Source of the DNA: Nitriliruptorales bacterium
Lineage (GTDB): Bacteria; Actinomycetota; Nitriliruptoria; Nitriliruptorales; Nitriliruptoraceae
DNA length: 64,000 nucleotides
Reading direction: 5' to 3'
NCBI GenBank assembly: GCA_024637135.1
Contig: JAGXFT010000018.1
Location: forward strand, 1,208 to 65,207
The notes beneath the pieces were generated by a model, which worked only from the letters and a program-made list of their open reading frames with translations, had not been told where the DNA came from and searched no databases. Shown one piece after another: positions 33,883 through 44,648 of this stretch (the stretch's first letter is position 1; every line of letters begins with the position of its first letter). Both the position numbers and the translations under genes were made by a program.

Positions 33883-34983
33883 GTGAGCGACGCGATGATC
33901 CGGTTGGTGGGCGTGACCAAGCGGTACCCGGGCGCCGCGTCACCGGCCGTCGACGCGCTCGACCTGACCTTCGACACGGGCGAGATCGTGACCCTGGTCG
34001 GACCCTCGGGCTGTGGCAAGACCACCACGCTCAAGATGATCAACCGGATCATCGAACCGACCGCCGGGACCATCACGGTCGACGGCACCGACATCACCTC
34101 GCGGCCGGCCCACGAACTGCGACGGGGCATCGGCTACGTGATCCAGCAGATCGGCCTGCTCCCCCACAAGACCGTCGAGGCCAACGTCGTCACGGTGCCG
34201 CGCCTGTTGGGCTGGGACGACGACCGGATGGCCGACCGGGCCCGCGAGTTGATGGACCTGATGGACCTCGACCAGTCGATGCTGTCGCGCTACCCGTCGG
34301 AACTGTCGGGCGGCCAGCGCCAGCGCGTCGGGGTCGCGCGGGCCCTGGCCGCGGACCCGCCGGTGCTGCTGATGGACGAACCGTTCGGCGCCGTCGACCC
34401 GATCGTGCGCCGTCGGCTGCAGGACCAACTGTTGTCGCTGCAGGAGGAACTGCGCAAGACGATCGTGTTCGTGACCCATGACATCGACGAGGCGATCCTG
34501 CTGGGCGACCGGGTCGCGGTGCTGAAGGTGGGCGGGACCCTGGCCCAGTACGCGACCCCGACCGAGTTGCTGTCCCACCCCGCCGACGACTTCGTGGTGG
34601 ACTTCCTCGGCGAGGAGCGGGCGCTGCGACGCCTGTCGCTGTTGGCGGTGGACGACCTCGACCTGCAGGACGGTCCGGTGGTCGACGCCGGTGCCGACGT
34701 CGGCACCGCGCGGGCCGCGGCCGACAAGTACGACGCCAACTGGGTCGGGGTGACCGACGACGGCCGCCTGCGCGGGTGGCTGTGGACCTCGACACTGGGC
34801 GAGGGCACCGCCGGTGACCACGACACCCAGGACTTCCGGGTCTGGATCCGCCCCGACGACTCGCTCCGGACCGCGCTGGACGCGATCGTGTCGTCGCGCA
34901 ACAACGTCGCGGTGGTGTCCGACGGCGACACCTACCACGGCATGCTGTTCGTCGAAGAGGTCACCGCGGAGCTGCTGGCATGA
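33883..34983 (+). CDS. Osmoprotectant ABC importer ATPase (OpuCA/OsmV-like, CBS domains)
   Basis: GPSGCGKTT, LRRGIGYVIQQ, LSGGQRQR, MDEPFGAVDP, FVTHD. Confidence 0.9.
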   Translation: MSDAMIRLVGVTKRYPGAASPAVDALDLTFDTGEIVTLVGPSGCGKTTTLKMINRIIEPTAGTITVDGTDITSRPAHELRRGIGYVIQQIGLLPHKTVEANVVTVPRLLGWDDDRMADRARELMDLMDLDQSMLSRYPSELSGGQRQRVGVARALAADPPVLLMDEPFGAVDPIVRRRLQDQLLSLQEELRKTIVFVTHDIDEAILLGDRVAVLKVGGTLAQYATPTELLSHPADDFVVDFLGEERALRRLSLLAVDDLDLQDGPVVDAGADVGTARAAADKYDANWVGVTDDGRLRGWLWTSTLGEGTAGDHDTQDFRVWIRPDDSLRTALDAIVSSRNNVAVVSDGDTYHGMLFVEEVTAELLA

Positions 34984-35666
34984 CGATGACGGTGGTGGAC
35001 GTGCTGGCCCAGGGCACGCCACTGGTCGACTGGGCCTGGATCCGCAACAACACCGACCTGATCTGGGAGCGCACGGTCGAACACGTCGTCCTCACGGTCG
35101 TGTCGGTGGGCGCCGGCATCGTGGTCTCGGTCCTGCTCGCGCTGCTGGCCCTGCGCTGGCGCCGCCTGGAGGGGCCGATCCTGGCCCTGGGGGGGATCCT
35201 CTACTCCGTGCCCTCACTGGCGGCGTTCGCGCTGCTGGTGCCCTTCTTCGGGCTGACCACGACGACCGCCGTGGTCGCGCTGACCACCTACACCGTGCTG
35301 ATCCTGGTCCGCAACATCCTGATCGGGCTGGACGGTGTCTCCCCCGACATCGTCGAGGCCGCCCGCGGACAGGGCCTGACCGAGCGCCAACTCCTGTGGC
35401 AGGTCAAGGCACCGCTGGCGCTGCCGGTGGTCATGGCCGGGGTCCGCGTGGCCACCGTGACCGTGATCGGACTGGTGACGGTGACGTCGCTGATCGGGTT
35501 GGGCGGGCTCGGCTTCCTGATCCTGCGCGGGATCCAGTTGCTGCCGGTGCTGTCGGTGATGGTGGTCGTCGGGACGGTCCTGTCCGTCGTGCTGGCCGTG
35601 GCCTTCGACCTGGCGTTGGTCGGCATCCAACGCCTGGCCACCCCCTGGACCAGGAGGGCCGCCTAG
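34980..35666 (+). CDS. Osmoprotectant ABC permease
   Basis: YSVPSLA, EAARGQG (EAA loop), GLGGLG. Confidence 0.9.
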   Translation: MTMTVVDVLAQGTPLVDWAWIRNNTDLIWERTVEHVVLTVVSVGAGIVVSVLLALLALRWRRLEGPILALGGILYSVPSLAAFALLVPFFGLTTTTAVVALTTYTVLILVRNILIGLDGVSPDIVEAARGQGLTERQLLWQVKAPLALPVVMAGVRVATVTVIGLVTVTSLIGLGGLGFLILRGIQLLPVLSVMVVVGTVLSVVLAVAFDLALVGIQRLATPWTRRAA

Positions 35667-36434
35667 ATGCTGGAACTCCTCGACCTCGTCCGCGACTTCC
35701 TGACCCAACCGGACCGCTGGAGCCTGACCGACGGATCGGGGATCCCGTTCCGTCTGGTCGAGCACCTGCAGGCCACGGTGGTGGCGACGGGCCTGGCAAC
35801 CGCCATCACCCTGCCGCCGGCCATGTGGCTGTCGCACCACAAGCGCGGTGAGGCGATCGCCGGGGCCCTGGTCAACATCGGGCGGGCCATCCCGTCGTTC
35901 GGCCTGATCATCATCTTCTTCCTGGTCCTGCGGGTGCGCTACGGCATGGGCGGCTTCTGGCCACTCATCCTCGCACTGGTGTTCCTGGCCGTTCCCCCGA
36001 TCTTCACCAACGCCTACACCGGCATCGCCGGGGTCGACCCCCACCTGGTCGAGGCCGCGCGCGGCCAGGGCATGAGCGAGTTCCAGGTCTTCCGACAGGT
36101 CGAACTGCCGCTCGGGGTGACGGTCGTGCTGACCGGGATCCGGGTCGCGCTGGTGCAGGTGCTGGCCACCGTCGGGATCGACGCCATCGTCACCAGCGGC
36201 GGCGGGTTGGGTCGCTACGTGGTCGACGGGTTCGCGGTGGGCGTGAACGGCTATGGCGCCGTGTTCACCGGCGCCGTGCTGCTGGCCGGGCTCGTGCTGT
36301 TCACCGAGTGGCTGTTCGGCTGGCTGCAGGACCGGCTGCTGCCGACGGGCCTCCGACGACGCGAACACCCCGACAGCGGCCTCGACGATCGACGAGACAT
36401 GCCTCCCCCGGGGACTGCCGTCGTCGGCGGCTGA
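35667..36434 (+). CDS. Osmoprotectant ABC permease
   Basis: GRAIPSF, PPIFTNAY, EAARGQGMS, VELPL. Confidence 0.9.
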   Translation: MLELLDLVRDFLTQPDRWSLTDGSGIPFRLVEHLQATVVATGLATAITLPPAMWLSHHKRGEAIAGALVNIGRAIPSFGLIIIFFLVLRVRYGMGGFWPLILALVFLAVPPIFTNAYTGIAGVDPHLVEAARGQGMSEFQVFRQVELPLGVTVVLTGIRVALVQVLATVGIDAIVTSGGGLGRYVVDGFAVGVNGYGAVFTGAVLLAGLVLFTEWLFGWLQDRLLPTGLRRREHPDSGLDDRRDMPPPGTAVVGG

Positions 36435-36561
36435 CCCACGTCCTGTTCGCGCGTTGGCCGCACGGTCGGGGTGAGCCGCATGGGAGACGGGGAACGATTG
36501 CGGTCGTAGGTTCGTTCCGATGCGTGATCACACGACCCACCCAACCCAAGGACGTCGTCCA

Positions 36562-37554
36562 ATGCGATCATCACGACTGCTCGTGGGCCTCGCCGCCCTC
36601 GGCCTGACCCTCAGCGCGTGCGGCGGCGTCAACGACGCCGGCACCGACGGGTCCGAATCCGCCGCCCCGGCCGACTCCACGCCAAGTGCGGCCCCGACCG
36701 CCACGTCGTCCGAATCGACGATGGCCAGTGAGACCGGAGGTGGTGACGGGGGTCCCGTGACCGTCGCGGGCTTCAACTTCCCCGAGTCCTCGATCCTGGG
36801 TGAGATCTACGCCCAGGCGCTGGAAGGCGCCGGCCTGGAGGTCGAACGCCAACTCGACTCCGGGACGCGCGAGATCCTGCTCCCCGAGATGCAGGACGGC
36901 AACGTCGACATCATCCCCGAGTACGTCGGATCGCTGTTGTCGACCGGCTACGGCGAGACCCCCGAGACCGACCCGCAGGCCGCGCTCGACCAGGCCGCCG
37001 GCGTCATCGAGGGTGACGGCCTGGCCTTGCTGGAGCCGGCCGAGGCGCAGGACAAGAACGTGTTCGTCGTCACCTCCGACTATGCCCAGGAGAATGACGT
37101 GACCGCGCTGGGCGACCTCGCCGACGTCGGTGACGTCACCCTTGCCGGTGGCCCCGAGTGCGAGGATCGCGAGACCTGCTTCGCCGGCTTGGCCAGTGTC
37201 TACGGGCTCGACAACGTGTCCTTCACCACGATCCAGGAGAAGGCCCCACGGCTGGCCGCCCTCAACGGCGATGACGTCCAGATGATCCTGCTGTTCTCCA
37301 CCGACCCGGTGTTCGAGGACGGTTCGCTGATCATCCTCGAGGACCCGGACAACCTCAGCCCGCCGGAGAACGTCATCCCCCTGGTCCGCCAGGAGGCGCT
37401 CGACGCCAACCCGGTGATCGCCGAGACCCTGAACGCGGTGTCCGCGGTGCTGACCACCGAGGGGCTGACCAGCCTCAACGCGGCCGCCGCCCAGGGTGAG
37501 CAGCCCGGCGACATCGCCGCCGGCTGGCTGGAGGAGAACGGCCTCACCGGCTGA
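36562..37554 (+). CDS. Glycine betaine/osmoprotectant-binding lipoprotein
   Basis: LSAC lipobox, FPESSILGEIYAQAL, IIPEYVG, PPENVIP. Confidence 0.88.
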   Translation: MRSSRLLVGLAALGLTLSACGGVNDAGTDGSESAAPADSTPSAAPTATSSESTMASETGGGDGGPVTVAGFNFPESSILGEIYAQALEGAGLEVERQLDSGTREILLPEMQDGNVDIIPEYVGSLLSTGYGETPETDPQAALDQAAGVIEGDGLALLEPAEAQDKNVFVVTSDYAQENDVTALGDLADVGDVTLAGGPECEDRETCFAGLASVYGLDNVSFTTIQEKAPRLAALNGDDVQMILLFSTDPVFEDGSLIILEDPDNLSPPENVIPLVRQEALDANPVIAETLNAVSAVLTTEGLTSLNAAAAQGEQPGDIAAGWLEENGLTG

Positions 37555-37622: not shown

Positions 37623-40061
37623 TCAGGCGCCGGGCTGCTGGTCCCGACCGCCCGTGTTCCCGTCACCCTCCGGCAGGCTCGTCGAAGGATCGGTCGAGGA
37701 ACCCTTGTCCGGGGAGGTGGTGGGTTCCTCGTCGGGTGTCGACGTCAGTTCGTCAGGGGTGGCGTCCGCGGACGTGTCCGGATCGGTGGCCGCCTCCGCC
37801 CCCGCGGCCGGCGTGGGGTCGCTCACCACGTCCTCCGCCGGCCCGTCCGGCGGGGCTTTGTCCTCGTGGCCCTTGAGGAGTTCCTCGGCGGGCTGGCGCT
37901 CGACCTCCCGGGCATCCTCGCGTTCCGCTTCCTCGGTGGCCTCGGCGGCCGCTTCGGACGACCCGGTCACGGCCGCATCCTCGACGACGTCGGCCTCGCC
38001 TGCGTCGGCGACCTGCTCGACGGTGGCTGACCGCTCGGCCGGCGCCTCGGGCGCAGCCGGGGCCGTCGGTTCGCCCGGTTCCTCGCTCGCCGGCGAGGTC
38101 GTGTCGGTGTCCGGCGTCGCCGGGGCGGAGGCCGGGGCGGCGGAGGTGGGCGTGGCCTCGTCGGAGCTGTCGGTCGGCGGCGGTGACCCGGCCGCGACCG
38201 CTGGCGCGTCCGACGGCGCGCGTTCCGTCGCGTCCGTGCCGTCCTGCACCTCACCGCGGGAGGCGGGGGCATCACCGGGTGGCGTGCTCGACTGGGCGGT
38301 ACGGGAGGCGACGGTGGCCTCGGCGGCCTGTTCCTCGGCCTCGGAGGTGGCGTCGGGCAGTCGGCGCTGGGTCTCGCCGGACGCCCATGCCAGGGCCTTG
38401 TCGTGACGCTCGTCGGGGGTGATGCCGGCAGCGACCATGGCCGCGTGCACGGCGACGGCGGGGTCGTGCTGGCCCTTGCGCGCGAAGGCCCACAACAGTT
38501 CGCGATAGGTCGGCTCGTCGACGGTGACCTCGGCCTCGGCCAACTGCGACAGCAGCAGCCGGGCCCGGTCCAGGTTGCCGGCGCGGGTCAGGGCACCGAC
38601 CAGGCGCGATCCGTCCGACACCGTCGGCGTGATCCGGGCCGAGATCATCTCGGTGACCAGTTTCGAGACGGTCTCGAACTCCTTGCGGTTGGCGTGGGCG
38701 GTGAGCAGCGAGCCCCAGTGCTGGCCCTGCGTGAGGGTGTTGGACACCCGCAGTTGGCGCAGCAACCGGACCGCGTCGTCCAACCGCCCGGCCGCGACCA
38801 GGGCCTCGACCAGGTCGGCGCCCCGCCGGCGGTCGGCGGTCAGGCCGGCCGCGATGGTCTCGCGGTACAGCGACAGGGCGAGGTCGAGTTCCTTGCGCCG
38901 CAGCAGCACCGCCAACAGGGCGGCCACCTTCGACGGCGGCGGGGGCACCCCCAGCATCAGCATCCAGTCCAGGGCCGCGATCGCCATCATGGGCTTCTTG
39001 CGGTCCAGCGCCAGGCCCATCATGGACTCGAGGTTGGCACCCGTCGGGATCGAGTCGTCGGAGAGCACGATCGCCTCGCGCCACACCCGCTGCAGGTCGC
39101 CGCTGTCGAGGACCGCTGCCAGCACCTGGTTGCGGTGGTGGCTGGTGACGGTGCCGCCGGCCTCGGTCAGGCACGTCATGCCGGCCCGCGCCGCGTCCAG
39201 GTCGCCCTTGCGGGCGTGGCCGTCGATCAGCGCCGACCGCGCCGAGTGGTCGACGGCGATGCCGGCCTCCACCAGCGTGGCCAGCAACTGGTCGCCACGG
39301 TCGGGGTGGCCCGCGCCGGCCATCATCTCCACCAGCCGGGTGGCGGTGACCGGGGACGGACCGGCGTCGACCGCGATCAGGTGGGCCACGAACGACTCCG
39401 CGTCGCGGATGGCCTTGCGGTCCATGACGTCGTCGAGCAACGGCCGGTAGTCGGCCTCGCCCGCCCGCACCCCGGCGCGTGACATCTTGTGGAGCAGGCC
39501 CCGTGCCTCGCCGAACTGGCGGGCCCGGACCCGCACGCCCAACACCCGCGGCAGCAGCCGGTCGGGGATCGGGGTCGAGCGGGCCAGGTCGTCGAGCCGG
39601 TCCAGGGAACCTTCGGCGGCATTGCGAGCACCGGCCAGGGCGATCTGCCACGTGACGCCGGCATCTCCCTCGATGCCCCTCGACGTCATCTCGTCGAGCA
39701 GGGTGCTCGCCCCGTCGAGGTCGTTGGCCGCCAGGTGAGCCTCGAGGTAGAGGCGGTAGTGGCGTGGCCCTCGGTCGACGTCGCGCTGCCCCATGGACTG
39801 CCACACCTGGCGGGCCATGCGCAGGTCACCGCTGAATCGTTGCAGGGCGTGGCTGTACCGATCCTCCGGCTCCGGTTCGGGCTCCGGCGTCGGCTCGGGC
39901 TCCGGCGTCGGTGGTTGTGGATCGGGGTCGGGCGACGACGCGGCCGGCTCGGCGGTCGACGACGGCTCGTCGGTCCGCGGGCCCGTGGGGGGCTCCGCCG
40001 GGTCCGGCGGGGGGGACCCGGGATCGGACGGGATCAACGGGGACGTGGGGGAATCGGACAT
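37623..40061 (-). CDS. Pentatricopeptide-repeat (PPR)-like protein: about 14 x 35-aa repeats with disordered Pro/acidic termini
   Basis: Tandem 35-aa units, e.g. YRLYLEAHLAANDLDGASTLLDEMTSRGIEGDAGV and YRELLWAFARKGQHDPAVAVHAAMVAAGITPDERH; repeat block about 38403-39860. Confidence 0.8.
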   Translation of the reverse strand: MSDSPTSPLIPSDPGSPPPDPAEPPTGPRTDEPSSTAEPAASSPDPDPQPPTPEPEPTPEPEPEPEDRYSHALQRFSGDLRMARQVWQSMGQRDVDRGPRHYRLYLEAHLAANDLDGASTLLDEMTSRGIEGDAGVTWQIALAGARNAAEGSLDRLDDLARSTPIPDRLLPRVLGVRVRARQFGEARGLLHKMSRAGVRAGEADYRPLLDDVMDRKAIRDAESFVAHLIAVDAGPSPVTATRLVEMMAGAGHPDRGDQLLATLVEAGIAVDHSARSALIDGHARKGDLDAARAGMTCLTEAGGTVTSHHRNQVLAAVLDSGDLQRVWREAIVLSDDSIPTGANLESMMGLALDRKKPMMAIAALDWMLMLGVPPPPSKVAALLAVLLRRKELDLALSLYRETIAAGLTADRRRGADLVEALVAAGRLDDAVRLLRQLRVSNTLTQGQHWGSLLTAHANRKEFETVSKLVTEMISARITPTVSDGSRLVGALTRAGNLDRARLLLSQLAEAEVTVDEPTYRELLWAFARKGQHDPAVAVHAAMVAAGITPDERHDKALAWASGETQRRLPDATSEAEEQAAEATVASRTAQSSTPPGDAPASRGEVQDGTDATERAPSDAPAVAAGSPPPTDSSDEATPTSAAPASAPATPDTDTTSPASEEPGEPTAPAAPEAPAERSATVEQVADAGEADVVEDAAVTGSSEAAAEATEEAEREDAREVERQPAEELLKGHEDKAPPDGPAEDVVSDPTPAAGAEAATDPDTSADATPDELTSTPDEEPTTSPDKGSSTDPSTSLPEGDGNTGGRDQQPGA

Positions 40062-40217
40062 CGTGTGGAACCTCGGATGGGCGCGCAGGAAACCGCCTGC
40101 ACACGGAGCGACCGGCCGTCGGTCGACAGCCACACACGGTAGTGGCGTGCCGTGTGGGACGACACCGGCCCGCCGCCGGACCGACTCCGTGGCGTCGACA
40201 CGGCCAGGAACCGGGAT

Positions 40218-41000
40218 TCAGGCCATGAGGAGGTGTTCCAGACCGACGGTCACCGGGTCGTCGAGGTCGGCCACCGCGCGGACCGCCAGGACCACACCCG
40301 CCATGAACGACGACCGGTCCAGCGAGTCGTGGCGGATGGTCAGGACCTCGCCCGTCCCGCCGGCGATCACCTCCTGGTGGGCCACCAGTCCGGGCAGGCG
40401 GACGCTGTGGACAACCACGCCGCGATGGACGTGGCCGCGGGCCCCGGGATGGGCGTCGTCGCCACCCACCGGGTCGACCGGTGTCTCGCGGGCGTCGGCC
40501 ACCAGGTCCGCGGTGCGCAGGGCCGTGCCGGACGGCGCGTCCACCTTGCCGTCGTGGTGGAGTTCGATGACCTCGACGTGGGGCAGGTGGCGGGCGGCTT
40601 CGGCCGCGAACTGCATCATCAGGACCGCACCGATCGCGAAGTTCGGGGCCACGAACACGTGGACCCCCGCGCCATCGGCCGCATCCGCCACCACGGCCAG
40701 GGCGTCGTCGTCCATCCCGGTCGCACCGACCACGACGTGCATGCCCGCTGCCACGAGCGCCTCGACGTTGGCGCGCACCGTGGACGGGGTCGAGAACTCC
40801 ACGGCGACGTCGACGTCGTCGGGCAGGTCGGCGATGGCGGCCACGATGGTGGGCCCGTCGTCGACGCCGGCCGGTGTGGCACCGTCGGCGGTGGGGTCGA
40901 CGGCACCCACCAGGTCCATCCCGTCGGCCCCGGCCACGGTCCGGCACACCTCCGCGCCCATGCGCCCACCGGCACCCACCACGGCCACCCGGATCCCCAC
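40218..41000 (-). CDS. dapB: 4-hydroxy-tetrahydrodipicolinate reductase
   Basis: GAGGRMG, APNFAIG, ELHHDGKVDAPSGTA, HSVRLPGLVAHQEV. Confidence 0.96.
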   Translation of the reverse strand: MGIRVAVVGAGGRMGAEVCRTVAGADGMDLVGAVDPTADGATPAGVDDGPTIVAAIADLPDDVDVAVEFSTPSTVRANVEALVAAGMHVVVGATGMDDDALAVVADAADGAGVHVFVAPNFAIGAVLMMQFAAEAARHLPHVEVIELHHDGKVDAPSGTALRTADLVADARETPVDPVGGDDAHPGARGHVHRGVVVHSVRLPGLVAHQEVIAGGTGEVLTIRHDSLDRSSFMAGVVLAVRAVADLDDPVTVGLEHLLMA

Positions 41001-41178: not shown

Positions 41179-43638
41179 TCAGTCGCGCGAACGGCTGCGG
41201 GTGCGCGAACGGCTGCGGCTGCGGGAGCGGCCACCACCGTCGTTGCTGCCCGCGTCGTCGCCACCCTCGCGGCGGCGCGAACGGTTGCGGCCACCGCGCG
41301 AACGGTCACCCGACCCGTTGTCGGACGAGTCGTCGCGCGACTGCGGGGCCTCGTCGGCCTCCTCGGTCGCGTCGTCGACCTCGTCGTCGTCGGCGTCGTC
41401 GGCGTCGTCGCGGGTGTCCGCGGCGTTGCCGCCCAGGTCGTTCGGGGCGTCGGACAGCAGTTCGAGCTTGAACTTGCGGCCACCATCGAGGACCTCGAGG
41501 ATCTCGACCAGCAGCTTGTCGCCGACGTTCACGGCTTCCTCGCCGTGGTCCATGCGCGACCCGTCACCGAGCTTGCGCAGCTGGGAGATGTGGACGAGGC
41601 CGTCGGTGCCCGGGGTCAGCGACACGAACGCGCCGAAGTCCACGGTCTTGACGACGGTCGCGTTGAAGCGCTCGCCCTTCTCGGGCACCACCGGGTTGGC
41701 GATCGCGTTGACACGCGCGACGGCGGCCTCGGCGATCTCCTTGGTGGAGCCGTAGATGCGGGCGACGCCCACACCGTTCTCCTCCTCGATGTCGATCTGC
41801 GCACCGGTCTCCTCGGTGATCTCGCGAATGATCTTGCCACCGGGGCCGATCACGTCGCCGATCTTGTCCTTGGGGACGGTGATGATCTCGACCCGCGGAG
41901 CGGTCGGGGCGACCTCGTCGCGCGGCTCGGCGATGGCCTCGGCCATGACGTCGAGGATCTCCAGCCGGGCCTCACGCGCCTGCAACAGGGCGTCGGCGAG
42001 CACGTTGGCCGGCAGGCCGTCGAGCTTGGTGTCCAGCTGCAGGGCGGTGACGAAGTCACGCGTCCCGGCCACCTTGAAGTCCATGTCGCCGAAGAAGTCC
42101 TCGACGCCCTGGATGTCGGTCAGGGTGGTGTAGGTGTCGTTCTCGTAGATCAGGCCCATCGCGATGCCGGCGACGGCACCGTGGATCGGCACACCGCCGT
42201 CCATCAGCGCCAGGGTCGAACCACAGACCGACGCCATCGACGTCGAGCCGTTGGACGACAGCACGTCGGACACGACGCGCATCGCGTACGGCCAGGTGTC
42301 CAGGGCCGGCAGGACCGGCTTGATGGCGCGCTCGGCCAGTGCCCCGTGGCCGATCTCGCGGCGCTTGGGGGACCCGACACGACCGGCTTCACCGGTCGAG
42401 TAGGGCGGCATGTTGTAGTGGTGCATGTAGTACTTCTCGGTGACCGGGTCGAGCGTGTCCAACCGCTGGTTGTCGCGGGTGGTGCCCAACGCCAGGACGC
42501 TCAGCGCCTGGGTGTCGCCGCGCTGGAACAGCCCAGCGCCGTGGGTGGCCGGCAGCACGCCGACCTCGGCCCGCAGCGCACGGATGTCGGTCGGCGAGCG
42601 ACCGTCGATGCGGACGCCGGTGTCGACGACCTTGCGACGAACGACCTTCTTCTCGACCGTGCGGAAGGCTTCGCGGCCCTCCTTGGCGGCGCCGTCGCCG
42701 GCGTCGTCCCCGAGGTCGGCGACGTAGGCGTCGACGACCTCGTCACGGATGACGGACAGGGCCTCGTCCTTGGCTTCCTTGCTGGAGGCCTCATCGGCGT
42801 AGACCTCGGTGACACGGTCCATCGCCAGCGCCGACACGGCCTCGTAGGCCTCGTCGGAGTGGTTCGGGAACAGCGGCAGCTCGCGCAGTTCGCGGCGACC
42901 GACCTGGTCGACGAAGGCCTGCTGGGCCTCGCACAGCTGCTTGAGGATCGGCTTGACGTCCTCGATGGCCTGGCCGATGAGTTCCTCGGTCGGCTTCGGG
43001 GCGCCCATGTCGATCTTGGTGACGGCGTCCTCGGTGGCCTCGGCCTCGATCATCAGGATGGCGACCTCGCCATCGATGACGCGACCGGCGATGACCATCT
43101 GGAAGACGACGTCCTCCTCGAGTTCCTGGAAGGTCGGGAAGGCGACCCAGGAGCCGTCACGCAGCAGCGCGTAGCGCACGGAACCGACCGGGCCGTCGAA
43201 CGGCAGGCCGGACAGCATCGTGGCCAACGACGAGGCGTTCATGGCGACGACGTCGTAGGGGTCGACCTGGGTGGTCTGGATGATCGTGTTGACGACCTGG
43301 ACCTCGTTGCGCAGGCCTTCGACGAAGGTGGGGCGCAGCGGGCGGTCGGTCAGGCGGCAGACCAGGATGGCGTTCTCGCTGGGGCGACCCTCGCGCTTGA
43401 AGAACGAGCCGGGGATCTTGCCGTTGGCGTACATGCGCTCCTCCACCTCGATGGTGAGGGGGAAGAAGGGCAGGAAGTCCTTGACCTGGCTGGATGCCGT
43501 CGTGGTCGTCAGGACCTTGGTGTCGCCGATGCCGGCGACGACCGAACCACCGGCCTGCTGGGCCAGCAGGCCCGCTTCGAAGGTGAGTTCCTTGCCGTCG
43601 ATCTCGACGACGTGTTCATGGATTCCGAGTGCACCCAC
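41179..43638 (-). CDS. pnp: Polyribonucleotide nucleotidyltransferase (PNPase) with acidic/RS-rich C-terminal tail
   Basis: FFPLT, RLTDRPLRP, RREIGHG, SNGSTSMASVC, GDMDFKVAG, KH and S1 domains. Confidence 0.98.
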   Translation of the reverse strand: MGALGIHEHVVEIDGKELTFEAGLLAQQAGGSVVAGIGDTKVLTTTTASSQVKDFLPFFPLTIEVEERMYANGKIPGSFFKREGRPSENAILVCRLTDRPLRPTFVEGLRNEVQVVNTIIQTTQVDPYDVVAMNASSLATMLSGLPFDGPVGSVRYALLRDGSWVAFPTFQELEEDVVFQMVIAGRVIDGEVAILMIEAEATEDAVTKIDMGAPKPTEELIGQAIEDVKPILKQLCEAQQAFVDQVGRRELRELPLFPNHSDEAYEAVSALAMDRVTEVYADEASSKEAKDEALSVIRDEVVDAYVADLGDDAGDGAAKEGREAFRTVEKKVVRRKVVDTGVRIDGRSPTDIRALRAEVGVLPATHGAGLFQRGDTQALSVLALGTTRDNQRLDTLDPVTEKYYMHHYNMPPYSTGEAGRVGSPKRREIGHGALAERAIKPVLPALDTWPYAMRVVSDVLSSNGSTSMASVCGSTLALMDGGVPIHGAVAGIAMGLIYENDTYTTLTDIQGVEDFFGDMDFKVAGTRDFVTALQLDTKLDGLPANVLADALLQAREARLEILDVMAEAIAEPRDEVAPTAPRVEIITVPKDKIGDVIGPGGKIIREITEETGAQIDIEEENGVGVARIYGSTKEIAEAAVARVNAIANPVVPEKGERFNATVVKTVDFGAFVSLTPGTDGLVHISQLRKLGDGSRMDHGEEAVNVGDKLLVEILEVLDGGRKFKLELLSDAPNDLGGNAADTRDDADDADDDEVDDATEEADEAPQSRDDSSDNGSGDRSRGGRNRSRRREGGDDAGSNDGGGRSRSRSRSRTRSRSRD

Positions 43639-43741
43639 AGGTGCCTCCTTGGTGTCAGCACACCGACGAGGTGGCGACTCCGTTCGCGGGCGGGCGACCG
43701 GTCTGGTCGTGTCCGCCGGGTCCACGCGGGTGACCGGGCCA

Positions 43742-43825
43742 TCAGTGGTGGGGACTCGCTGCGACGATCACGTCCGAACCGTGTGGAGGCCGGTCGTGTC
43801 GAACTTGTCGAGCCCCCGCCACTGA
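43742..43825 (-). promoter_or_regulatory. Long stem-loop in the rpsO-pnp intergenic leader (candidate RNase III processing site)
   Basis: TCAGTGGTGGGG / CCCCGCCACTGA inverted repeat; RNase III-cleaved pnp leader hairpins are established in E. coli and Streptomyces. Confidence 0.5.
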
Positions 43826-44035
43826 CGTCCGATCGTGACGCGGGTCGAGTGGGGGGTCGTATTCCTCGTGGTGCATGTGGTGCGACCCGCCGGTTCCTCC
43901 GGCCCGGGTCGCGGGGTTGTCAGGTGGTGCGCCGGTCGGCGTCGATGCCCGTGGTGGGCCCGGCCGACCGGGATGGTGCGAGTCGGGGCGGCCACGCGCC
44001 TGATCGTTGGCTGGGGCGTGGTCCGGCCCGGGGGT

Positions 44036-44308
44036 TCAGCGGCGCAGTTCCAGCTCCGCGATGAGCGCGCGATAGCGCTCGATGTCCTTGTTGGACAGGT
44101 AGTTCAGCAAACGCCGACGCTTGCCCACCAGCTTCAGCAGCCCACGGCGCGAGTGGTGATCGCCCTTGTGCTCCTGGAGGTGGCCGGTGAGGTGGCTGAT
44201 CCGCTGGGTTGCCAGCGCGACCTGCACCTCCGGCGAGCCGGTGTCACCCTCGTGGGTGGCGAACCGCTCGATGATTGCCTGCTTGTCGTCGGGAAGTTGG
44301 ACTGCCAA
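44036..44308 (-). CDS. rpsO: 30S ribosomal protein S15
   Basis: [36 protein letters not shown]; TTG start after AAGGAG. Confidence 0.97.
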
Positions 44309-44648
44309 CGTTCGTCTCCTTGGTCGTCCTGCCACGTCGGGCACCACACGACCCCATCGATGGGGCTGGTGGTTCGGGGGTCGGTCCGCGTCCTGCGGCC
44401 GCTGGCACACGACCATCCGGCGAGACTGCCTGGTGGTGGTGCAGCGTGACCCCGACGCCCGAGCGGGCACGGCGAAATGATGGCCTGTCTCTCAGGCCAC
44501 CCCGAGTATCACCCATCCCCCACCACAACGCAAACCCACCGGTGTGGACCTTCGTCGCGATCGCGCCGAAGCGGGCGCTGCGCACGCGACCACATCGACG
44601 CGCCTCCGAGACCTGCGGCGTACCGTTGGCCGTCCGACGACGAGGCCC

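Follow-up and report, generated by a model that had tools for sequence, protein, structure and literature searches.

A pentatricopeptide-repeat protein inherited across the bacterial order Nitriliruptorales, with a conserved structured leader upstream of its gene

The window analysed here, a stretch of 64,000 nucleotides from a bacterium of the order Nitriliruptorales, encodes on its reverse strand (37623..40061) a P-class pentatricopeptide-repeat (PPR) protein of 14 repeats. The gene is single-copy, has been inherited vertically across the whole order, and is preceded by a conserved RNA structure tied to it one-to-one. Proteins of this type are otherwise regarded as nearly restricted to the organelles of plants and animals. 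The interpretation that we favor, with a probability of about 0.45, is that the protein, itself non-catalytic, binds a single conserved RNA that is likely ribosomal, and is likely self-regulated through this leader.

Open reading frame calling and translation give a protein of 812 amino acids starting at the ATG at 40061, with a start-codon context identical in three relatives of the genus. The gene, its parts and its upstream neighbors are arranged as follows.

37623..40061, reverse strand: PPR gene, ATG at 40061, stop at 37623-37625
39864..40061, reverse strand: aa 1-66, an N-terminal extension rich in Pro and Glu and not conserved
39249..39863, reverse strand: PPR repeats 1-6 (aa 67-271), fast-evolving groove, Lys/Arg13 23%
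38412..39248, reverse strand: PPR repeats 7-14 (aa 272-550), slow groove, Lys/Arg13 59%; predicted RNA-binding part
38355..38411, reverse strand: capping helix plus a short basic motif (aa 551-569), both conserved
37626..38354, reverse strand: acidic low-complexity tail, of variable length among orthologs
40218..40994, reverse strand: dapB, constant upstream neighbor, start approximate
41179..43725, reverse strand: pnp (PNPase) open frame, then rpsO at about 44036-44380

That the repeats are PPRs rather than TPRs, as the initial annotation had claimed, is borne out by their period, profile scores and predicted fold. All 14 five-residue repeat starts quoted there are found in the protein, at spacings of 34, 35, 33, 35, 35, 35, 35, 34, 35, 35, 35, 35 and 35 residues, i.e., 35 in 10 of 13 and 33-34 in the others, which together with the last unit gives the 11 units of exactly 35 residues that it had counted. 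In the repeat region TIGR00756 reaches 86 bits (cut-off 20) and the Pfam models PPR_2, PPR and PPR_long reach 75 (cut-off 30), 63 and 51, against 33 bits for the best TPR model, TPR_19. Across 39 orthologs PPR_long matches all 39 and PPR_2 38, with best E-values of 1e-36 for PPR models versus 2e-14 for TPR_19. The predicted model (pLDDT 91.9) consists of 14 helix pairs and a cap, forming the PPR-type superhelix that had been expected, and PPRs lead its fold matches (Z 24.9; rmsd 12.2 over 349 aligned residues), the best TPR reaching Z 13.3. TPR family membership is thus ruled out. The high rmsd to PPR folds reflects a different superhelix pitch. Since mean identity between repeats is only 16% (maximum 40%), the array is old and not a recent DNA duplication.

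The Pro/Glu-rich N-terminus and the acidic tail of about 250 residues are both present as described earlier, and neither is conserved; many orthologs begin only 3-10 residues ahead of repeat 1, and the tail, which in the window protein is rich in A, E, P, T and D and gives the last 250 residues a net charge of -46, is 5 to 309 residues long across 36 orthologs. The claimed absence of a signal peptide and of a catalytic domain also holds, the best 19-residue hydropathy within the first 60 residues being -0.69, and Pfam and NCBIfam scans of the window protein giving no further domain besides the repeats.

Orthologs of the gene occur in 88 of 95 Nitriliruptorales genomes, and none was found in the 48 sister-order genomes searched. 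These bacteria are free-living and, according to search listings, come from saline soil, desert and soda-lake habitats. The upstream neighbor is dapB at 36 of 39 loci, and the neighborhood is that of an older cluster, rpsO-pnp-(M16)-dapB-thyX-dapA-rnj, in which the PPR gene was gained between dapB and thyX. When PPR and PNPase trees are compared over 23 genomes, none of the nine supported PPR splits conflicts and seven are shared. The dN/dS to the nearest relative's gene is 0.10, the values to farther relatives (0.32 and 0.44) being inflated by saturation of synonymous sites. The suggestion of a long-resident native bacterial PPR is therefore well founded, and so is that of host-like codons (GC3 of 0.94 versus 0.92 in dapB). 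Eukaryotic contamination, recent transfer or a decaying relic could be read into the closest matches outside the family, which are eukaryotic PPRs (seven of the ten looked up come from named plants, algae or fungi), and into one genome, G119 (54% complete), where the gene lies in frame-shifted pieces. Such a reading deserves next to no credence, being refuted by synteny and tree congruence: dozens of independent assemblies, including three that are a single contig, have the gene at the same place with bacterial core genes on both sides, and codon composition and purifying selection also speak against it. Naming a donor was tried and given up, the nearest eukaryotic matches being scattered (lycophyte, prasinophyte, stramenopile, angiosperms, fungus) and repeat-driven. 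As for the array itself, it may have arisen by internal amplification or been imported whole; each repeat fits the other 13 about as well as it fits a eukaryote-like profile.

Repeats 7-14, unlike repeats 1-6 and the acidic tail, keep a slowly evolving groove. Evolutionary rates in repeats 7-14 are 0.48 for position 5 and 0.50 for position 35, as opposed to 1.39 on the outer face, and Lys or Arg at position 13, where Lys is a phosphate contact in PPRs (PMC4837458), is found at 59%, versus 23% in repeats 1-6 and 62% in the eukaryote-like control. The split at repeat 7 was picked after seeing the data, so that its p-values overstate. Position 35 also caps a helix, and its conservation may be partly structural. 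According to the base-binding 5/35 pairs in the available text of PMC6468296, tested on designer PPRs, binder codes are present in 62% (repeat 7), 100% (repeat 8), 87% (repeat 10) and 79% (repeat 13) of orthologs. Repeat 7 has T/T, T/S or T/N among orthologs and S/T in the window protein, repeat 8 has N/T or N/S with Asn311 invariant in 39 of 39 orthologs, and repeats 10 and 13 conserve A/D and S/D, with swaps staying inside the binder codes (S/D, G/D, A/D). The four kept pairs predict A, C, G and G, respectively. The initial annotation had called the code mostly non-canonical, which calls for refinement: repeats 1-6 have lost the binder codes, and these four repeats of the C-terminal half keep validated pairs order-wide; it had overlooked S/T in repeat 7 and A/D in repeat 10, both base-binding in the same source. 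The pairs that it gave for repeats 6 (T/D), 8 (N/T), 13 (S/D) and 14 (R/D) stand, whereas repeat 2 reads R/A and not R/D because its unit has 36 residues in this register. Non-binder pairs are conserved as well, namely E/P in repeat 9, whose groove is acidic, R/H in repeat 11 and R/D in repeat 14, the last binding no base in the available text of PMC6468296.

Over all repeats, a validated binder code is found in 32% (42% in repeats 7-14, 19% in repeats 1-6) versus 77% in the control, and a hydrophobic stacking residue at position 2 in 25% versus 65%; on both counts the array departs from a canonical one-repeat-one-base reader. Lys/Arg13 and the designer-PPR code pairs suggest RNA binding by repeats 7-14, with a partial read-out that may be about A-C-x-G-x-x-G. 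The conserved residues of repeats 1-6 sit on turns and outer helices (repeats 1 and 5), which points to a possible partner surface on these two repeats.

The degeneracy of most code pairs and position-2 residues would also fit a PPR fold repurposed as a TPR-like scaffold, where a conserved protein would offer a peptide to the groove of repeats 7-14 and the leader would have some other reader. Such a groove could be lined by invariant Asn, Trp and Arg, the core carries a slight net negative charge in 35 of 39 orthologs, and PPR folds also occur within large protein machines, as far as structure titles tell. We hold this to be somewhat unlikely, since conservation within repeats 7-14 is maximal precisely at positions 5 and 35, substitutions there remain within binder codes, and Lys/Arg13 of these repeats is retained at control level. 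Acidic residues at positions 9 and 35, moreover, are also seen in designer PPRs, and a dedicated structured leader is typical for RNA-binding proteins, by the available text of PMC8470358.

This leader RNA, previously unannotated, lies directly upstream of the PPR gene in 60 of 79 family genomes. Its elements in the window are listed below.

40136..40141, reverse strand: -10-like hexamer TACCGT, its T, A and final T unchanged across 60 of 60 leaders; putative promoter element
40109..40125, reverse strand: leader hairpin P1, 6 bp with a 5-nt loop
40083..40106, reverse strand: predicted H-type pseudoknot of stems S1 and S2
40103-40106 with 40093-40096, reverse strand: stem S1, 4 bp of the predicted pseudoknot
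40097-40102 with 40083-40088, reverse strand: stem S2, 6 bp; pseudoknot loop at 40089-40092
40071..40074, reverse strand: Shine-Dalgarno-like GAGG, 9 nt ahead of the start codon

A scan of 143 genomes gives 61 strong leader matches. Of these, 60 precede the repeats by 32-314 nt and share the strand of the gene, and the remaining one stands behind dapB at the end of a contig. No strong match was found in 19 of the 79 gene-bearing family genomes, nor was a leader found in a second family, where the PPR gene is coupled to dapB. Among 21 leaders not used for training, pairing holds in 252 of 252 cells, and 21 double changes occur. The pseudoknot stem S1, which lies outside the hairpin model to which the leader alignments were fitted, is fully paired in 53 of 60 leaders, with double changes at three of its four pairs. 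Of 60 random stretches of 260 nt, 25 contain a generic pseudoknot pattern, so that the prediction is carried by covariation and not by the fold pattern. An Rfam search gave no match to the leader, which counts as a new structured RNA motif. Mimicry of a protein's site on a stable RNA, which an S15-type operator would show, was looked for by eye in tmRNA, RNase P RNA and tRNAs, with no likeness seen. A sigma-70 scan, ill-suited to this GC-rich group, found no promoter. The one RNA run examined covers no part of the gene, which speaks neither for nor against its expression.

It is quite conceivable, if short of an even chance, that the leader is no operator for the PPR protein and serves as a 5′ stabilizer, a ribosome (S1) standby site or an unknown type of riboswitch. 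Pseudoknots at the 5′ end can serve as S1/30S standby sites, by the available text of PMC7708055, conserved unpaired bases in the leader are few, its distance to the start codon is highly variable, and the PPR code does not single it out, 48% of 840 permuted codes doing at least as well as its best register (40/60). Inspection likewise gave no clear code-to-base covariation between PPR and leader. A general stabilizer, however, would not be expected once per genome and solely before the PPR gene, and variable loops speak against a small-molecule pocket, as does the lack of an Rfam match against this reading as a whole. The window's own genome holds only one strong leader match, and a regulon of leader copies was rejected; a pattern search there gave one additional leader-like match, which has no P1.

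In the self-regulated RNA binder that we favor, the last eight repeats would grip a short single-stranded stretch of a highly conserved RNA, in all likelihood rRNA, and surplus protein would bind the hairpin and predicted pseudoknot of its own leader and so limit its synthesis, an autoregulation suggested by analogy with ribosomal protein S15. The code persists across orthologs that share only 26-33% identity, a constancy that rapidly changing mRNA leaders would scarcely require, and this makes a stable RNA the probable target. The predicted motif has several sites on rRNA that cannot be ranked, as it carries too little information, and no order-specific rRNA insertion of at least 4 nt was found among 5 + 5 sequences compared. 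Replacement of a lost RNA factor was considered and rejected: RNase P RNA, RnpA, RNase E/G, bS1 and the anti-Shine-Dalgarno are each present in 5 of 5 genomes, and the rRNAs have no order-specific insertion. An RNase E insertion as docking site was dropped as well, it being a variable acidic loop only 6-10 residues longer in several PPR-bearing genomes and equally long in some outgroups.

The role that is standard for P-class PPRs lacking a catalytic domain, by the available text of PMC3799425, is that of chloroplast PPR10. Here the protein would bind short sites in a few mRNAs and block RNase J and PNPase, which would fix transcript ends and free translation starts. Both nucleases exist in the host and are encoded on either side of the PPR gene; pnp and rnj predate it, however, and this adjacency is therefore uninformative on its function. 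In the 150 nt behind seven neighboring genes there is no convincing conserved motif site (sense and antisense counts are alike or mixed), the genome has no second strong leader copy, and an order-wide fixed code fits mRNA sites poorly, all of which makes such a role rather unlikely.

Organellar and designer P-class PPRs (maize PPR10, PDB 4M57/4M59; dPPR 5I9D-H; cPPR 5ORM) share with the window family the 35-residue helix-pair repeats, the superhelix, the absence of a catalytic domain, Lys/Arg13 and some 5/35 pairs. Unlike the organellar ones, this family is bacterial and chromosomal, single-copy order-wide, without a targeting peptide, equipped with its own structured leader, and keeps code and position-2 residues in part of the array only. 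The PPRs of organellar machines (plant mitoribosome mL102/rPPR5 and mS76; human mS39 and LRPPRC; plastid polymerase PAP1/PAP2), all among the sequence and fold matches, are degenerate long arrays in conserved housekeeping complexes and resemble the window protein; such subunits bind rRNA largely without the code. Their matches are nevertheless partial and repeat-driven and establish no orthology, and no rRNA expansion for docking was found among the sequences compared. Prokaryotic cyclase-PPR proteins (phylum family f30), of which we know no published family, also have PPR-like repeats in Actinomycetota, but with a 32-residue period, canonical N/N, N/T and N/D codes, an N-terminal cyclase-like domain and variable neighborhoods. 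Membership is excluded by the 35-residue period and, in Pfam and NCBIfam scans of the window protein, the lack of a cyclase-like domain; in the window family, 14 of 14 repeats score lower on the cyclase-PPR profile than on the eukaryote-like one. The PPRs of Ralstonia and other symbionts and pathogens, likewise repeats in a bacterial genome, are few, host-associated and horizontally acquired in the available texts of PMC3858423, PMC8190603 and PMC4029402, whereas the window family is vertically inherited across an order. The autogenous S15 (rpsO) operator of E. coli and mycobacteria, whose 5′ leader can fold as a pseudoknot (PMC8470358, available text), is similar in that a predicted leader pseudoknot, backed by covariation, precedes the gene of a putative RNA-binding protein; the PPR leader differs in sequence, matches nothing in Rfam and has no conserved U-G/C-G motif.

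In those three sources on bacterial PPRs, as far as their available texts go, these proteins are absent from bacteria save for a few host-derived cases; here one is an order-wide core gene that comes with its own conserved cis-RNA. It provides a one-gene bacterial system for asking how a PPR becomes indispensable, if the 5/35 code also applies beyond organelles, and what role the conserved non-canonical pairs R/H, E/P, G/T and R/D play. Considered alongside other PPR-like families of prokaryotes, it raises the question of PPR origin anew. It is tempting, though we think it rather unlikely, to go further and suppose that the order domesticated a PPR at its origin as a permanent component of the ribosome or of RNA maturation, one that reads RNA by a partial organellar code and governs its own production by way of a hitherto undescribed pseudoknot operator. 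If true, a free-living bacterium would have independently taken the step that mitochondria and plastids took.

The gene encodes a protein that domain models and a predicted structure both place among the pentatricopeptide-repeat (PPR) proteins:

37623-40061, minus strand, PPR gene, open reading frame of 812 aa
40083-40125, minus strand, leader (hairpin P1 and predicted H-type pseudoknot)

All 14 repeat starts quoted in the initial annotation are found there, spaced by 35 in 10 of 13 cases, and its choice of PPR over TPR is borne out by TIGR00756 (86 bits, where the best TPR model reaches 33) and, over the repeat region, by Pfam PPR_2 (75 bits), PPR (63) and PPR_long (51). Designer PPRs and PPR10 head the PDB sequence matches. 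The structure model, built from 39 orthologs (pLDDT 91.9, pTM 0.73), has 14 helix pairs and a capping helix, and the expected PPR-like fold is recovered from this prediction, whose top structural matches are PPRs (Z 24.9, rmsd 12.2, 349 residues aligned; best TPR 13.3). Two of ten proteins looked up bear database names, one a generic TPR and the other a generic PPR label. The gene is the sole strong PPR-like gene of its genome (G000); against the eukaryote-like PPR profile, one further six-frame ORF (G000:C14, C14-1_2064) reaches 21.6 bits.

When 143 genomes of the class were searched by profile, the gene turned up in 79 of the 86 from its own family and in 9/9 of the order's second family (6/6 without the unpublished G040, G044 and G045), as a rule once per genome. 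Among five of the seven misses, dapB also goes unmatched in three and lies at a contig end in two, and a few copies are truncated by contig ends. One genome (G119:C13:90835-92385; 54% complete) has the gene as frame-shifted pieces behind an intact leader, either from sequencing error or from decay, and another (G038, L068:2388-3128, minus strand) a partial second copy, profile positions 127-271, ~2.3 kb downstream of the full gene. The 48 genomes of other orders give two weak matches (E 1e-11 and 1e-5), neither with a Pfam family; in a phylum-wide sample of 380 genomes outside the order 372 have no match, the other eight being one such weak match and seven genes of a different PPR-like family. 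A search of 1.84 billion cluster representatives gives 18 family members that match in a single stretch at 1e-36 or better, followed by a few family fragments and, from 1e-32 down, multi-stretch matches; ten matches beyond the family were looked up, seven being named eukaryotes and three lacking an organism. One family member, labelled Glaciecola sp. (MAG) and 57% identical to an in-order ortholog, is probably a binning error.

The locus is as stable as the distribution. The usual order is truB-ribF-rpsO-pnp-(M16 peptidase)-dapB-PPR-...-thyX-dapA-rnj. Of 39 loci, 36 have dapB ahead of the PPR gene in the same orientation; thyX-dapA follows the gene in two of the remainder, and the last lacks a usable flank. 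All five sister-order genomes have the cluster without the PPR gene, dapB nearly adjoining thyX in three, which indicates that the gene was gained at the dapB-thyX spot in the order's ancestor. It follows as well that the nuclease neighbours are no evidence for PPR function. A nuclease roadblock on mRNAs, the PPR10 role described in part of PMC3799425, we regard as unlikely. In 23 genomes, the PNPase tree contradicts none of nine supported PPR splits and shares seven of them; dN/dS to the nearest relative is 0.10. With GC3 matching that of dapB, presence throughout the order, a fixed locus and trees in accord, the proposed host-like codons and long native residence both hold. The gene's 3′ end faces a convergent ABC transporter, apparently of the osmoprotectant type (33883-37554, plus strand), a neighbour it has only in the genus and in a single close relative. 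The PNPase has a low-complexity C-terminal tail (41179-41450), acidic and then Arg/Ser-rich, and outgroup PNPases likewise extend ~80-90 aa beyond the match. The rpsO-pnp spacer (~43700-44030; loci L029-L062) contains the motif GTCAGTGGAGAC, common to many in-order genomes and some outgroups and probably a pnp leader.

Conservation is uneven along the array. With positions numbered after the part available of PMC6468296, Lys/Arg13 and validated binder codes reach 59% and 42% in repeats R7-14 of 39 orthologs, and 23% and 19% in R1-6; a eukaryote-like control, 1554 repeats from 126 non-family matches chosen by likeness to the query and with only ten members looked up, gives 62% and 77%. In designer PPRs, according to sections of PMC4837458, position 13 touches phosphate and stacking on bases falls to position 2, which is hydrophobic in 25% here, against 65% in the control. 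Binder codes persist at R7 (62% of orthologs; T/T, T/S for A), R8 (100%; N/T, N/S for C), R10 (87%; A/D, G/D, S/D for G) and R13 (79%; S/D for G), so that the code described earlier as mostly non-canonical is so for most repeats but not for these four. The pairs kept at R9, R11 and R14 are E/P, R/H and R/D, the last binding no base in the portion seen of PMC6468296. Site rates in R7-14 are 0.48 at position 5 and 0.50 at position 35, against 1.39 on the outer face, the groove staying slower without cap positions (0.93); in the regular repeats R4-6 the groove (1.63) is faster than the outer face (1.19), the R7 boundary having been set after inspection of the data. Conserved residues of R1 and R5 sit on turns, and tail length ranges between 5 and 309 aa (36 orthologs measured). 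As read from sequence, the C-terminal groove would be a conserved ligand site with partial PPR chemistry, and the family no canonical reader over the full array. That the protein is a peptide-binding scaffold, to which the departures from canonical chemistry could point, seems unlikely beside the binder codes retained.

Our preferred reading, at a probability of roughly 0.45, is a cytoplasmic, non-catalytic putative RNA-binding factor, whose R7-14 would hold one strand of a conserved RNA, most likely rRNA, and which may feed back on its own synthesis through the leader, by analogy with S15 (feedback through a leader, described in part of PMC8470358). Checks for a lost RNA factor that the PPR protein might replace were negative, as was the search for an rRNA expansion serving as docking site. 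RNase E/G (G000:C202:20229-21104; loci L160-L164) has an acidic loop inserted within its catalytic domain, lengthening from 6-10 aa in basal members to ~35-100 aa across most of the own family and missing from most outgroups. ARAGORN finds two near-identical tRNA-Ser(cga) genes (C92 and C127) and a tRNA-Sec (C35) in the source genome.

The leader follows the dapB stop in family genomes: a -10-like TAssGT, a 6-bp hairpin, a CCAC spacer and a second 6-bp hairpin whose loop begins GYGG, both hairpins being recovered unaided by RNAalifold. Searched with a covariance model trained on 19 sequences, the 143 genomes yield 61 strong matches (E <=9e-5), never more than one per genome and none outside the own family, every other match being at E 0.001 or weaker. 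Of the strong ones, 60 precede the repeats by 32-314 nt in the gene's orientation, and the 61st follows dapB at the end of a contig. In 21 non-training leaders, aligned by fitting to the model, 252/252 cells are paired, 21 with double changes. The first bases of the second loop also pair with the spacer, in a stem not part of the model: 4/4 pairs in 53 of 60 sequences, register slip allowed, and 3/4 pairs with double changes in fixed columns (e.g., A-U replaced by G-C in three genera). With 4 bp, 0-2 nt, 6 bp, 0 nt and 4 nt, the predicted fold has the geometry of an H-type pseudoknot, and G-U pairs favour structure at the RNA level. An Rfam search gave no match, and the PPR code does not single the leader out. 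In six genomes (L034, L036, L037, L038, L040, L058) dapB and the PPR gene are separated by an inserted gene on the other strand and the leader stays with the PPR gene, consistent with the latter having its own promoter. A strong match is absent in 19 of the 79 own-family genomes with the gene (partial forms in some) and no leader was found in six second-family loci, where the gene abuts or overlaps the dapB stop; both count against a necessary role. For the leader taken by itself, a standby or stabilising element of the kind described in part of PMC7708055 is a plausible alternative.

As to origin, the Actinomycetota family f30 has a second PPR-like family in 7/10 genomes, with a class III cyclase-like domain ahead of ~20 repeats of 32 aa. 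Its proteins measure 1050-1100 aa in the four loci uncut by contig ends, the codes are the canonical N/N, N/T and N/D, and the neighbourhoods vary:

L090:7049-10201, plus strand, f30 PPR-like gene
L092:5384-8689, minus strand, f30 PPR-like gene
L093:7444-10677, plus strand, f30 PPR-like gene
L094:7420-10572, minus strand, f30 PPR-like gene
L091, L095, L096, f30 PPR-like genes

In the window's own PPR family all 14 repeats fit the eukaryote-like profile, itself selected for likeness, better than the 32-aa one; judging by sequence, a eukaryotic donor, though not nameable, would be the simplest reading, and a prokaryotic source a possible one.

In the portions available of PMC3858423, PMC8190603, PMC4029402 and PMC13386178, PPRs are absent from prokaryotes or occasional, tied to symbionts and pathogens. 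In mainly non-subscription journals (main texts) no article has both pentatricopeptide and nitrilirupt-, nor was a description of this family found. The PPR gene is a real, old, order-defining bacterial gene, and its leader a new cis-RNA motif.
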